From a virus (lineage: Duplodnaviria > Heunggongvirae > Uroviricota > Caudoviricetes), in IMG/VR virus record IMGVR_UViG_2778261464_000005: a DNA stretch of 29,045 nt, one strand, 5' to 3'. The notes under the pieces were generated by a model, which was not told where the DNA came from, made no database searches, and saw only the letters and a list, made by a program, of their open reading frames with translations. The translations under genes were made by a program, and so were the position numbers. This document shows, piece after piece, positions 4,540-7,883 of the stretch (position 1 is its first letter; every line of letters starts with the position of its first letter).

Positions 4540-5214
4540 TTAGGCTTTGATTTTGTATCTTCTTGGTTTTCCTGAGAAAATCACAGTACCAATTATAGAG
4601 CAATTACCGTTGATCTTAATGTAAGGCTCAGGCCAGTTTGGGTTTAACGCTTTGAGATAACGCTGTGTCCCATCTTCTATCAACCTTTTGAAGGTGGTTT
4701 CACCTGTATCGTGCATCAATGCAATAACGTCGTCACCGTGGCAGGCAGGTACTTCAGGATCGACAAAAATCATGTCTCCCGGGCGGTACTCATCAATCAT
4801 TGAATCACCTATCACCCGCAAGATATAAGTCATTTCCCCACAGGGTACAGGGCAGGGATACGTTTCTGCTGTGCTCAAATCAACCTCAGAATATCCAACT
4901 TCTTTCCATGCTCCGGCCTGTACCCATGATATGACAGGGACTAATGTGATTTGTTTATTAGTGATTGAAACATCAGGTTTTTTTGTGATGTTCGTTGTCT
5001 GGTGTTCTTGATCGAGCCATCCGACAGGCAGGTCGAAACATTTTTCGATGTGTCGTGCCATGCTGTCACCGATATTTTTAGTAGCACCATCTCCCATAAA
5101 CCTGCTGGTTTGGGTTGGCTCGCGATCAATCATAGTGGCAAAGGAAGAATTCCCGCCAACACCATCTCTCAGTTTTCTGGCGTTAGACCGCCGGATGTCA
5201 TGGATTGTTTTCAT
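4540..5214 (-). CDS. cI: CI-type prophage repressor (N-terminal HTH + C-terminal S24 LexA-like autopeptidase)
   Basis: 224 aa. The C-terminal segment VIGDSMIDEYRPGDMIFVDPE...FKRLIEDG...LKALNPNWP matches the S24 peptidase motif of lambda CI/LexA. Divergent from the Cro-like gene across an operator-bearing intergenic region. Confidence 0.85.
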   Translation of the reverse strand: MKTIHDIRRSNARKLRDGVGGNSSFATMIDREPTQTSRFMGDGATKNIGDSMARHIEKCFDLPVGWLDQEHQTTNITKKPDVSITNKQITLVPVISWVQAGAWKEVGYSEVDLSTAETYPCPVPCGEMTYILRVIGDSMIDEYRPGDMIFVDPEVPACHGDDVIALMHDTGETTFKRLIEDGTQRYLKALNPNWPEPYIKINGNCSIIGTVIFSGKPRRYKIKA

Positions 5215-5229
5215 AACGAAATTAAAACC

Positions 5230-5250
5230 CTTGTACCGTTAAGGTACAAG
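5230..5250. promoter_or_regulatory. OR-like operator: perfect palindrome CTTGTACC-GTTAA-GGTACAAG in the cI/cro intergenic region
   Basis: 8-bp arms with a 5-bp spacer, read directly. A candidate PR follows (TTGAAG at ~5255, TAATAT at ~5277), and another GGTACA lies at ~5293. Confidence 0.55.
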
Positions 5251-5304
5251 TATCTTGAAGGTTCATTTTAATCATGTAATATGTATATTGGAGGTACATA
5301 TTGT

Positions 5305-5505
5305 ATGAAAGCGTATTGGGACTCTTTAACCAAAGAACAGCAGGGCGAGTTGGCCGGAAAAGTTGGCTCAACACCTGGCTACTTACGGCTGGTTTTCAAT
5401 GGCTATAAAAAAGCCAGTTTTGTGCTGGCTAAAAAACTTGAGCAATGCACGTCAGGTGCAATTACGAAATCTGACTTAAGACCGGATATCTATCCGAAAG
5501 ATTAG
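5305..5505 (+). CDS. cro: Cro/YdaS-like HTH regulator
   Basis: Start taken at the internal ATG 5305 (MKAYWDSLTKEQQGELAGKVGSTPGYLRLVFNGYKKAS...), preceded by GGAGG ~9 nt upstream. Small HTH protein divergent from cI. Confidence 0.7.
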   Translation: MKAYWDSLTKEQQGELAGKVGSTPGYLRLVFNGYKKASFVLAKKLEQCTSGAITKSDLRPDIYPKD

Positions 5506-5536
5506 CAGAACACTTTCAATTTTTAACCACAGAACG

Positions 5537-6106
5537 ATGAGGCTAATCGTGGGTAAGCATCACTGGAAAATAGAAAAACAGCCTGAGTGGTACATGAAAG
5601 CTGTCAGAAAAACTATCGCGGCGTTGCCGGGTGGTTACGCTGAAGCCGCTGACTGGCTGGATGTAACAGAGAACGCTTTATTCAACCGCCTTCGTGCAGA
5701 TGGCGATCAGATTTTTCCGCTGGGATGGGCAATGGTTTTACAGCGTGCTGGTGGCACTCACTTCATTGCTGATGCTGTGGCGCAGTCTGCAAATGGCGTA
5801 TTTGTGTCTCTTCCTGACGTCGAGGATGTGGACAACGCCGATATTAACCAGCGTCTGCTGGAAGTCATTGAACAGATCGGCAGTTATTCAAAACAGATTC
5901 GTTCAGCAATCGAAGACGGTGTAGTGGAACCGCATGAGAAGACAGCAATTAACGACGAGCTGTATCTCTCAATTTCGAAGCTGCAGGAGCATGCAGCACT
6001 GGTCTACAAAATCTTTTGCATTTCAGAAAGTAATGACGCCCGCGAGTGTGCAGCTCCGGGCGTCGTGGCGTCGATTGCTTCTGGTTGTGGAGAAACTAAC
6101 GCATGA
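5537..6106 (+). CDS. CII-like / YdaT-family regulatory protein
   Basis: 189 aa directly after the Cro-like gene; size and position fit the Rac-type YdaS-YdaT pair. Start uncertain (ATG 5537, or GTG 5551 with a better SD). Confidence 0.55.
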
Positions 6107-6461
6107 ACAGTTTAACAACACACTACCGTCGCTCGCAACTGATTGCGCTTCCTGTACCGGGTGGAAAAGCGAAGGTGGAATATTGCTATGCAGTGAATGT
6201 ACCAGGTGACAGGGAAATTGTAACCCACAGCTTTGCAGAGTGGGCTGTGGGTGATTTCAACCGGCAGAAGGAGACAGTCCTTTGCGACAAGTTAACCGCT
6301 GGTTCAAAGATCACTACGGAGTGCCCGTCAGAGTTATTCGTTGGGAGCCGGAAACACAACGGGTTATCTACCTCCGTGAAGGCTATGAGCATGAGTGCTT
6401 CAGCCCGCTCGAACAGTTTCGTCGTAAATTCAGGGAAATAGAGGTCGGTCATGAGCACTAA
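6103..6461 (+). pseudogene. Small gene between the CII-like and replication genes that needs a frame change to be read through
   Basis: ATG 6103 overlaps the upstream stop (ATGA). The protein-like N-terminal half is in that frame to about 6270. The protein-like C-terminal half (...[59 protein letters not shown]) is in the -1 frame, open from 6255, and ends at TAA 6459-6461 overlapping the replication gene start. The original frame continues as a Ser-rich, low-complexity tail to TAG 6441. Confidence 0.4.
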
Positions 6462-7392
6462 ATTAACCGGCTATGTATGGGATGGTTGCGCTGCGTCAGG
6501 CATGAAATTATCCAGCGTGGCAATTATGGCCCGCCTGGCTGATTTCAGTAATGACGAAGGTGTGTGCTGGCCATCAATTGAAACCATTGCCCGTCAGATT
6601 GGCGCGGGGATGAGTACCGTCAGAACGGCTATCGCACGGCTGGAAGCAGAAGGCTGGTTAACGCGTAAGGCGCGTCGCCAGGGTAACCGCAATGCGTCGA
6701 ATGTTTATCAGCTTAACGTTGCGAAGCTTCAGGCAGCGGCATTTTCTCAACTGTCAGATTCTGACCCGTCAAAATCTGACGCATCAAAATCTGACCCGTC
6801 AAAATTTGATGCGTCGAAATCTGGCAAAAAAGCGGGTTTTCACCCGTCAGAATCTGGCGGGGATCCGTCAGTAAAATCAAAACATGATCCGTCAGATAAA
6901 AAACCTTCTCGTCCGGACGCTTCGCAACCGGACACGCAGACGGCTGAACAGGATTTTTTAACTCGCCATCCTGATGCGGTTGTATTCAGCCCTAAAAAGC
7001 GCCAGTGGGGGACGCAGGATGATTTGACCTGCGCACAGTGGCTCTGGAAAAAAATCATCGCCCTGTACGAGCAGGCTGCCGAATGTGACGGCGAGGTGGT
7101 TCGTCCCAAAGAACCGAACTGGACAGCCTGGGCAAACGAAATTCGCCTGATGTGTGTACAGGATGGGCGTACTCACAAACAAATCTGCGAGATGTACAGC
7201 CGCGTCAGCCGCGATCCGTTCTGGTGCCGTAACGTGCTCAGCCCGTCGAAGCTGCGGGAAAAATGGGATGAGCTTTCCCTGCGCTTATCGCCGTCCGTCA
7301 GCACGTACACCGAAAAACGCGAGGACCCGTACTTCAAAGCCAGTTACGACAACGTGGACTACAGCCAGATCCCGGCAGGATTCAGAGGGTGA
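6451..7392 (+). CDS. Replication initiation protein (N-terminal HTH; iteron-encoded repeat linker; C-terminal Trp-rich domain)
   Basis: 313 aa. N-terminal LSSVAIMARLADFSNDEGVCWPSIETIARQIGAGMSTVRTAIARLEAEGWL is typical of phage replication-initiator HTH domains. The middle SDPSK/SDASK/SDPSK/FDASK repeats are encoded by the tandem DNA repeats. Position after cII mirrors lambda O. Confidence 0.75.
   Translation: MSTKLTGYVWDGCAASGMKLSSVAIMARLADFSNDEGVCWPSIETIARQIGAGMSTVRTAIARLEAEGWLTRKARRQGNRNASNVYQLNVAKLQAAAFSQLSDSDPSKSDASKSDPSKFDASKSGKKAGFHPSESGGDPSVKSKHDPSDKKPSRPDASQPDTQTAEQDFLTRHPDAVVFSPKKRQWGTQDDLTCAQWLWKKIIALYEQAAECDGEVVRPKEPNWTAWANEIRLMCVQDGRTHKQICEMYSRVSRDPFWCRNVLSPSKLREKWDELSLRLSPSVSTYTEKREDPYFKASYDNVDYSQIPAGFRG
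6755..6900 (+). repeat. Iteron array (probable origin of replication) inside the replication initiator gene
   Basis: Five tandem 15-bp units (TCTGACCCGTCAAAA, TCTGACGCATCAAAA, TCTGACCCGTCAAAA, TTTGATGCGTCGAAA, TCTGGC...) followed by three more CCGTCAG-containing units and an A-rich tract (GATAAAAAACC). Coordinates approximate. Confidence 0.6.
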
Positions 7393-7394
7393 TC

Positions 7395-7883
7395 ATGAGT
7401 CTGTTAAATGACGTTCAGAAATTCATTGAAGCCCATCCGGGGTGTACTTCCGGAGACATTGCGGATGCTTTTGCAGGTTACTCACGGCAGCGCGTTCTGC
7501 AGTCTGCAAGCAAGTTACGTCAGAGTGGGCGTGTGGCTCACCGTTGTGAAGGAGATACACGCAGACATTTCCCGCGCCTGACTGAGAGAGCGCAGGAACC
7601 GGAACCACAACCAGTTCGAGAAACCAGACCTGTGCGCAATTTCTATGTCGGCACTAACGATCCACGGGTGATTTTGTGCCTGACCCGCCAGGCTGAAGAA
7701 CTGGAGTCCAGGGGCTTATACCGTCGTGCTGCAACCGTGTGGATGGCGGCATTCCGTGAAAGCCACTCCCAGCCAGAACGAAACAATTTTCTGGCGCGTC
7801 GTGAGCTGTGTTTACGTAAAAGCAGCAAGCGCGCTGTATCGAGTGATGAGTGGTATCTGTCAGGGAATTACGTGGGGGCGTAA
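7395..7883 (+). CDS. Hypothetical protein, possibly replication-associated (helix-rich N-terminus)
   Basis: ATG 7395 is 3 nt after the replication gene stop, with AGAGGG upstream; 162 aa. Its stop overlaps the next start (TAATG). Confidence 0.5.
   Translation: MSLLNDVQKFIEAHPGCTSGDIADAFAGYSRQRVLQSASKLRQSGRVAHRCEGDTRRHFPRLTERAQEPEPQPVRETRPVRNFYVGTNDPRVILCLTRQAEELESRGLYRRAATVWMAAFRESHSQPERNNFLARRELCLRKSSKRAVSSDEWYLSGNYVGA

Follow-up and report, generated by a model that had tools for sequence, protein, structure and literature searches.

The 29,045-nucleotide stretch of viral DNA analysed here (IMG/VR record IMGVR_UViG_2778261464_000005; hereafter the window, always at its full length) represents a lambdoid prophage of the type of SfII, SfIV and CPS-53 (KplE1). 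Within the linker-coding part of its replication initiator gene lies an array of short repeats which, judged from sequence comparisons, is most likely the replication origin of this prophage, organised like ori-lambda. This reading is supported by the layout of the region, the homology of the C-terminal domain (C-domain) of the initiator, the synonymous conservation of the DNA that bears the repeats, a codon skew in their tandem part, the covariation of the repeats with the N-terminal domain (N-domain) and changes in the orientation of the site among relatives. An initial annotation had drawn the analogy with lambda O and ori-lambda, which is borne out by the C-domain homology, the synonymous conservation and the covariation, together with the position of the iterons and the least stable segment. 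The arrangement is what a specialist would expect, a textbook layout, and its departures from lambda are an HTH_36 DNA-binding domain, 13-bp sites at 15-bp phasing, the lack of a P gene and a DnaT-type tail; the correlation between the tail and the helicase loader is the part worth testing.

The array was located by TRF and pattern matching, with shuffled sequences (n = 100) giving the expectation. TRF detected a 15-bp-period array at positions 6760–6823 (4.3 copies, score 86; a period of 30 scored 100), and the five tandem 15-bp repeats of the initial annotation are present where it had placed them, as dyads spaced by exactly 15 bp (6753–6825), inside the initiator open reading frame (ORF) at 6451–7392 and translated in frame as a repeat linker (SDSDPSKSDASKSDPSKFDASKSGKK...). 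Three degenerate CCGTCAG-containing units had also been described, at 6844, 6865 and 6889. These heptamers exist, but the first belongs to a sixth full repeat, whose CCAGAATCTGG is retained in nearly all relatives with the same class of N-domain (class 1, see below), and the other two are not degenerate repeats but GATCCGTCAG elements, which form part of a separate, class-independent block conserved in all relatives. Allowing up to two mismatches, the dyad pattern gave 17 strand-matches in the window against 4.1 expected, a number reached by none of the 100 shuffles; 11 of the 17 fell inside 6753–6858, and outside this interval only four scattered sites were found, with one or two mismatches each (2768, 21376, 21418 and 21652). 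The iteron core TCARAWTCTGAC is kept across genera and its 3-nt spacer is free. The repeats correspond to codons 101–148 of the initiator.

The gene that carries the array matched HTH_36 (PF13730, E 4e-11; 42.9 bits for residues 23–70, against a gathering cut-off of 25) and phrog_391, "replication initiation O-like" (E 8e-136), and its homologues include yfdO of CPS-53/KplE1 and, in phages SfII, SfIV and Kati, the gene for the "primosomal/replication protein". At the DNA level, the gene is 98.8–99.2% identical to those of Kati, SfIV and SfII, and the Kati protein is 100% identical to that of the window. A structural model of the protein (AlphaFold2, AF2), built on 52 homologues, showed three parts. 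The N-domain was modelled with a predicted local distance difference test (pLDDT) of 70–89, and its Foldseek matches were winged helix-turn-helix proteins of the MarR/ArsR type, several of them solved in complex with DNA. Proteins of this type typically bind dyad sites as dimers. The segment predicted to be disordered, residues 102–160, coincides exactly with the part encoded by the repeats, and the length of this linker varies in relatives. The C-domain was modelled as a confident helical domain (residues 162–280), for which searches of PDB sequences, NCBIfam and Foldseek returned no structure or curated family, and nothing beyond the N-terminal winged helix.

The C-domain (residues ~166–278) matched that of a lambda-type O protein, the O of phage 434, with a BLASTP E value of 3e-26 and 39% identity over residues 166–277, and that of phi80 gp15 with 4e-25; tblastn against the O genes of lambda, 434 and Stx phages also gave 39% identity. 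As in ori-lambda (lambda, 434, 21 and Stx phages), the array lies inside the initiator gene, between the sequences for the N- and C-domains; its iterons are arranged in tandem and have dyad symmetry, the A-rich segment of lowest stability comes after them, and the gene belongs to the rightward early string after cro and cII. Iterons occupy nucleotides ~348–434 of the lambda-type gene and ~367–439 of the phi80 gene (codons ~116–146), and in both cases the least stable 40-mer comes directly after them, with −42.4 kcal/mol in the lambda-type O of phage 434 (mean, −54.4) and −46.4 in phi80 (mean, −55.7). In the window, the least stable 40-mers of the initiator gene begin at 6862–6873, with the minimum at 6867–6872, also directly after the repeats, with −47.0 kcal/mol against a gene mean of −57.3; the difference, 10.3 kcal/mol, compares with 12.0 in phage 434 and 9.3 in phi80. 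The phi80 gene 15/14 region shares with the window the internal repeats (three, with 21-bp spacing) and the homologous C-domain, and "Replication protein 15" is the name that one homologue of the window protein bears in its source; the phi80 region differs in the P-like gene 14 immediately downstream, in a tail rich in Trp and acidic residues (Trp-acidic tail) and in the unrelated sequence of its repeats.

The likeness to lambda is not complete. Pfam assigned the N-domain of the window protein to HTH_36, not to Phage_rep_O, and BLASTP revealed no similarity between it and the N-domain of lambda O; a published HHpred analysis nevertheless called the lambda O N-domain HTH_36-like (PMC5509034), and a distant relation between the two is possible. 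The lambda iterons are four units of ~19 bp at 20–24 bp, in contrast to the six 13-bp dyads with 15-bp phasing of the window, whose A-rich segment is less extreme and holds the two GATCCGTCAG elements. Finally, O is followed by P in lambda and ends in NTDWIYGVDL, whereas the window has no P and its initiator ends in IPAGFRG.

Comparison with relatives shows that selection acts on the repeat DNA rather than on the peptide that it encodes. A scan of the genome collection yielded 80 loci from other species, and the synonymous test was carried out on 63 loci with a class-1 N-domain (71–92% identical over the first 90 residues), taking as the measure the share of identical codons among residues identical to those of the window. 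Codon identity was 0.887 (924/1042) in the 22-codon 3' block formed by the sixth repeat and the A-rich element, against 0.428 (1965/4596) in the N-domain, and the block was above the N-domain at every one of the 63 loci. Asp was encoded by GAT in 64 of 64 sequences within the block and Val by GTA in 63 of 64, and CCG was kept in 60 of 64. A skew was also seen in the tandem part, where TCA or TCT made up 83% of the Ser codons and AAA 97% of the Lys codons; in the remainder of the same genes, the shares were 26% and 62%, respectively. The sole variable residue of each repeat unit falls on the 3-nt spacer between dyads.

The repeats also change with the class of the N-domain. Class-1 N-domains go with TCARAWTCTGAC repeats, and class 2, whose N-domain is ~45% identical, has TTGA-SSSS-TCAA repeats in the same place and with the same 15-bp period; two further N-domain classes have repeats of their own, one locus with GTTCAGAWTCTGAAC and another with GGCTCAC/GTGAGCC. 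The class-2 site is found in both orientations (TTGACCCCTCAA and TTGAGGGGTCAA), encoding DPS/DPP or EGS/EGL peptides, so that the peptide differs but the DNA word does not. What the repeats encode would be a disordered spacer, with a sequence that follows for the most part from the DNA signal. Module boundaries lie just 3' of the repeats; many loci share only residues 1–168, fused to a Phg_2220_C domain, and phage mEp460_4F5 shares only nucleotides 443–942 of the initiator gene.

The synonymous-site signal is confined to the linker. The heptamer CCGTCAG occurs 18 times in the window, against 2.65 expected from dinucleotide shuffles, with 11 copies far from the origin; these scattered copies are probably not half-sites but an effect of bias in codons and dicodons (CCG, CGT-CAG). 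The copies at 6325, 6591, 6617 and 7295 were considered as extra half-sites and discarded as codon-bias background, because those at 6591 and 6617 cover codons that lack synonymous conservation in relatives (0.24–0.27). The single-strand fold of 6745–6910 is strong (z −5.6), which merely restates the dyad symmetry, and was rejected as an RNA element; no Rfam match at gathering score was obtained. In the spacer between iterons 5 and 6, an AAAAA-N-GTTTTSACCC pattern recurs in relatives, where the encoded peptide differs. Read on the minus strand (6846–6833), the AAAAAAGCGGGTTTTCACCCG found there resembles a terminator-like hairpin followed by a T-run, and the A-run and T-run of this spacer (6826–6846) may serve as a bend or as a stop for anti-sense transcription.

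The tract that follows the sixth repeat was described in the initial annotation as A-rich. It does contain the least stable 40-mer of the gene, but its A-richness is modest: the ~45-bp block is 62% A+T, with 20 A against 8 T. It includes the two GATCCGTCAG elements (GATCCGTCAG...GATCCGTCAG), at 6865 and 6889, and is common to all four N-domain classes and both C-domain types; therefore, it is not the initiator-specific part. In class-2 relatives and in those with a Phg_2220_C domain, the least stable segment likewise comes directly after the repeats. By analogy with lambda and phi80, the block at 6862–6905 is a candidate for the unwinding and helicase-entry element. The same block, of the form GATCCGTCAGTAAAA...GATCCGTCAGATAAAAAA, with two to three GATC (Dam) sites and conserved synonymous positions, was found in loci L006, L009, L010, L014, L016 and L019, and also in L024, L057, L059 and L076, and it marks where homology among mosaic relatives begins or ends.

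This last property bears on the strongest of the alternatives, that the block is a linker promoting the exchange of initiator modules, or a needed peptide motif (GGDPSV...DPSDKK), and not an unwinding element. Homology to various relatives starts or stops there (nucleotide 223, nucleotide 443, residues 161–169), and the peptide of the block is nearly invariant. Conservation of the third codon positions nonetheless goes well past what a peptide would need, as the GAT, GTA and CCG counts given above indicate, and nowhere is the gene less stable than in this block, a property shared with the segments that come directly after the iterons of lambda and phi80. We consider this alternative unlikely, and the two roles are not exclusive.

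It is improbable that the repeats are initiator-binding sites for autoregulation, copy control or exclusion of related phages, with the start site elsewhere. Plasmid iterons do act also in handcuffing and autorepression; against this stands the succession of repeats and least stable segment, which matches lambda-type O and phi80 gp15 in an equivalent position and beside a homologous C-domain, and the four scattered sites already mentioned are all that the window holds elsewhere, none of them in a comparable cluster. Even less probable is that the module is a decayed remnant which has lost its loader, replication proceeding by a recombination-dependent or host-fork route. No P or DnaC gene is present, some relatives of the family do have P or DnaC-like genes, and the K-12 copy in CPS-53 is truncated at its 5' end; yet isolated phages (SfII, SfIV and Kati) show the same loader-less arrangement, ~1,600 E. 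coli genomes carry the ORF in intact form with an identity of at least 98%, and ~58 of the 80 loci from other species have intact initiators with no linked loader. The least credible proposal, a low-complexity SDxSK protein linker made by slippage and with no role as DNA, fits a region that is in frame, predicted to be disordered and changing in length by whole 5-codon units among close relatives, but it is at odds with a codon identity twice that of the folded N-domain, with Ser and Lys codons skewed to the motif, with a variable residue placed on the spacer, with a class-2 motif found in both orientations and with repeats that change with the N-domain class and not with the C-domain.

The number of repeats was analysed in 32 full-length copies spread evenly over the E. 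coli matches. Thirty of them have the length of the window, one is longer by 15 nt and another by 45 nt, and a further E. coli strain outside this sample is longer by 30 nt; every difference corresponds to whole TCAAAATCTGACGCA units, so that the strains have between 5 and 8 of them in tandem. Some deposited proteins, with an identity of 99% or more where they align, lack 10, 26 or 31 residues, and when protein records are included, the range goes from one to eight tandem units, with the five-unit form dominating. The sizes of protein clusters at 90% identity were discarded as a measure of repeat-number stability, as such clusters can mix length variants. The initial annotation had regarded a count varying freely among close relatives without effect as evidence against an origin; the count does vary among them, which is one half of that argument, the lack of effect being the other. 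Working O-type origins of Stx phages also differ from lambda in iteron number.

Several observations weigh against the interpretation of the array as an origin, or against parts of it. The relatives share descent and their repeats evolve in concert, so the counts given above are not independent. The number of tandem units varies from 5 to 8 among E. coli strains, and two protein records, P0015 and P0017, are without most of the units, so the array is not strictly required for the persistence of the gene in a prophage. The A-rich block is only moderately unstable, with 62% A+T and a rank within the top 6% of the 40-mers of the window, and its conservation across initiator classes could be that of a recombination linker or of a conserved peptide motif. 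With regard to the tail discussed below, its link to DnaC is correlative, and an hhalign comparison with DnaT aligned 19 columns only (E 0.0095, probability 4%). In addition, a 2026 paper on the preprimosome favours the N-domain of DnaT, not its tail, as the possible recruiter of DnaB/DnaC (PMC13377028).

The initial annotation was correct in that no helicase-loader gene follows the initiator: neither the window nor the complete genome of Kati yielded a homologue in tblastn searches with lambda P, phi80 gp14, a P homologue of the family and two DnaC-like proteins (E > 0.8). Tails and loaders were compared across about 90 loci (L003–L096). A PF06992 lambda-P homologue lies immediately downstream of the initiator in eight scanned loci, and an IstB/DnaC-like gene follows it in L069, in L074 and in Rac-like YdaU-type genes, whereas ~58 of the 80 have no linked gene of either kind. 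A Trp-acidic tail (NTDWIYGVDL, HWNSPEAWENTL) is present in each of the 10 initiators that precede P, lambda-type O and phi80 gp15 among them, whichever C-domain they have. Some 45 initiators end in [IV]PxGFR[GS] and none of these has P next to it, a GFRG tail going with a DnaC-type loader or with none. Those preceding a DnaC-like gene show the GFRG motif (L069, YdaU type) or a variant, IPEGF... (L074). As a side observation, a third tail type (...F/AxxxW[NA]xIW[KQ][EQ]...QR...) was found in Providencia, Rahnella, Yersinia and Buttiauxella with either type of C-domain (L013, L016–L022, L038, L054, L056, L063, L064, L071, L075–L078, L081 and L082), with no P or DnaC-like gene within 3 kb downstream of these initiators.

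The last nine residues of the window protein are identical in eight positions to those of E. coli DnaT (SQIPAGFRG and SQIPPGFRG, respectively), at the very C-terminus in both proteins, and in some relatives the match extends to ~20 residues (RDVNxxSxxDxxIPxGFRG). Furthermore, dnaT (L086, 4979–5518) lies directly upstream of dnaC, as the GFRG-tailed YdaU-type genes lie before DnaC-like genes. DnaT differs in having no sequence-specific DNA-binding domain and no iterons, and neither hhalign, beyond the terminal ~19 residues, nor a search of PDB sequences revealed homology to DnaT. The label "primosomal protein" on the phage gene is misleading, and the match of the tail probably explains it. As the phage lacks both P and DnaC genes and has a tail of the DnaT type, we propose the capture of the host DnaB–DnaC through the tail, our hypothesis being that the host DnaC/DnaB is probably recruited directly by this DnaT-like peptide. 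More tentatively, the tail could be an exchangeable "loader address", with the Trp-acidic form docking lambda-P-type loaders and IPxGFRG docking DnaC-type ones, loader-less phages having copied the DnaT tail so that host DnaB–DnaC is captured at their origin; on the present comparisons, we consider this broader scheme somewhat doubtful. The way in which DnaT recruits DnaB/DnaC was called unknown in the 2026 preprimosome structure paper (PMC13377028).

Taking the array as the origin, replication could proceed as follows. Rightward early transcription would produce the initiator, as the gene order suggests, and dimers of its N-terminal winged helix would bind the six dyads (6753–6858), five of them at 15-bp phasing, to form a nucleoprotein complex, a step to which the covariation of N-domain and repeats points. 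The A-rich block at 6862–6905 would be opened next, in view of its position and stability and by analogy with lambda. The lambda-O-like C-domain and the tail would then bring in the replicative helicase, with host DnaB–DnaC hypothetically captured via IPxGFRG, as suggested by correlation only.

The features discussed are collected in Table 1.

Table 1. Features of the putative origin, the initiator and the neighbouring genes, in positions of the window.
Feature	Position	Strand	Basis or remarks
CI-like repressor	4540-5214	-	Pfam S24 peptidase
Cro/YdaS-like gene	5281-5505		Pfam YdaS
CII-like gene	5537-6106		Pfam Phage_CP76
Replication initiator gene, 313 aa	6451..7392	+	ORF, Pfam, PHROG and phage DNA matches
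N-terminal winged-helix DNA-binding domain, aa 1-100, presumed iteron reader	6451..6750	+	HTH_36, GntR and MarR matches, aa 23-81
Five tandem iterons, 13-bp dyads GTCARAWTCTGRC	6753..6825	.	Starts 6753, 6768, 6783, 6798, 6813
Disordered linker, aa 102-160	6754..6930	+	AF2 pLDDT <50; encoded by the putative origin DNA
Spacer between iterons 5 and 6, A6...T4 motif AAAAAAGCGGGTTTTCACCC	6826..6845	.	
Sixth iteron GTCAGAATCTGGC	6846..6858	.	0 mismatches to pattern
Class-independent block GATCCGTCAGTAAAATCAAAACATGATCCGTCAGATAAAAAACC	6862..6905	.	Lowest stability in the gene; top strand rich in A; contains two GATC sites
C-terminal domain, lambda O/phi80 gp15 C-domain homologue	6946..7284	+	BLASTP; AF2 pLDDT >90
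Extreme C-terminal tail SQIPAGFRG	7363..7389	+	8/9 identical to DnaT C-terminus
PerC-family gene (yfdN-like)	7389..7883	+	PF06069 E 1e-9, phrog_1324; overlaps initiator stop codon
Class-1 iteron site			GTCAGAATCTGAC
Initiator tail peptide			NVDYSQIPAGFRG

Among known systems, the Rac-type ydaU-ydaV module is also close to the window. The YdaU-type initiators (P0102 and P0116) have an HTH_36 N-domain, a linker array with a 15-bp period, the GATCCGTCAG block, a related C-domain and an ...EIPPGFRG tail; they differ in that their N-domain is of class 2, with TTGA-SSSS-TCAA repeats, and in that a loader of their own, an IstB/DnaC-like protein of 248 residues, follows. We take oriJ to belong to Rac. 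An oriJ-based plasmid is cited as reference 62 in PMC11014345.

Iteron plasmids (pSC101 RepA, R6K pi and RK2 TrfA) likewise have a winged-helix initiator and iterons beside an A+T-rich region, and use host DnaB/DnaC with no loader of their own; their origins are intergenic and have DnaA boxes. The DnaA box TTWTNCACA was not found in the whole window, and Pfam detected no Rep_3-type domain in it; the absence of that box gives no support to a DnaA-dependent, plasmid-type origin. Matches in PLSDB were not accepted as proof of autonomous replication, as most of them are circles of phage size or prophages carried by large replicons, and neither was the small circle pZ1322PEC0161-2 (15,977 bp), whose YdaU-type copy is frameshifted. 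This 15,977-bp circular element (L087, NZ_CP148542.1), which was deposited as a plasmid, contains only a lambdoid early/late-regulatory segment, with cI, cro, the YdaU-type initiator, a DnaC-like gene, Q and lysis genes, and the frameshift of its initiator lies in the conserved block. It recalls lambda-dv plasmids and may be an assembly artefact.

The genes around the initiator follow the order of SfIV in the immunity and early-right region (4540–6106), with the initiator downstream in the same rightward string; two small ORFs lie between it and the CII-like gene, and a PerC-family gene, a gene with a LexA DNA-binding domain and RusA come 3' of it. The PerC-family gene fills the slot of lambda P and has no homology to P or DnaC and no similarity to loaders. 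Genes of this family, with a MarR-like N-terminal half, were also observed after initiators of both C-domain types in 24 scanned loci from many genera. Upstream, two ORFs in different frames overlap by ~160 nt, one at 6103–6441 (112 residues, phrog_1170, E 2e-69), annotated in the SfIV record, and the other at 6282–6461 (59 residues, DUF4222, E 9e-19), annotated by RefSeq; the overlap within 6103–6461 could stem from programmed frameshifting, from two genuine genes that overlap or from an error of annotation.

A search of 5,426 complete E. coli genomes detected 80% or more of the initiator gene in 1,576 of them. The K-12 copy in CPS-53, which we take to be yfdO, is without the first 233 nt of the gene. 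This copy (e.g., NZ_CP014272.1, 2575024–2575732, beside yfdN) begins at nucleotide 234, so that most of the DNA-binding domain is gone and the iteron array and C-domain are complete, as in an origin without its reader. Literature searches found no publications on the iterons or the origin of SfII, SfIV, SfV or CPS-53, and no experiments on binding, unwinding or origin activity in this family. Weigel and Seitz (2006) reportedly classified phage replication modules. SfIV is among the phages isolated with this initiator gene, an isolated and characterised serotype-converting phage (PMC3851460), and its genome paper names only a "replication module", from orf41 to orf45.

The array would thus provide the probable origin and recognition sequence of a module present in ~1,600 of 5,426 E. 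coli genomes, in phages SfII and SfIV, which convert the serotype of Shigella, and in CPS-53, and a target for work on induction, incompatibility and exclusion among these prophages, as well as for vector building. The domain that reads the DNA, together with its repeats, forms one of three units of this module that exchange separately, the C-domain and the terminal tail being the others. This amounts to a natural experiment in modular design, in which the part that determines the route of helicase loading can be sought. Through the peptide that it has in common with DnaT, the family offers a cheap and direct test of how DnaB–DnaC is engaged by a loader-less phage origin and perhaps by the host restart primosome. 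If the proposal for the tail is true, the same peptide would be the missing link in the way DnaT hands DnaB/DnaC to the restart primosome, and a descent of dnaT-dnaC from a phage initiator–loader pair would be suggested.

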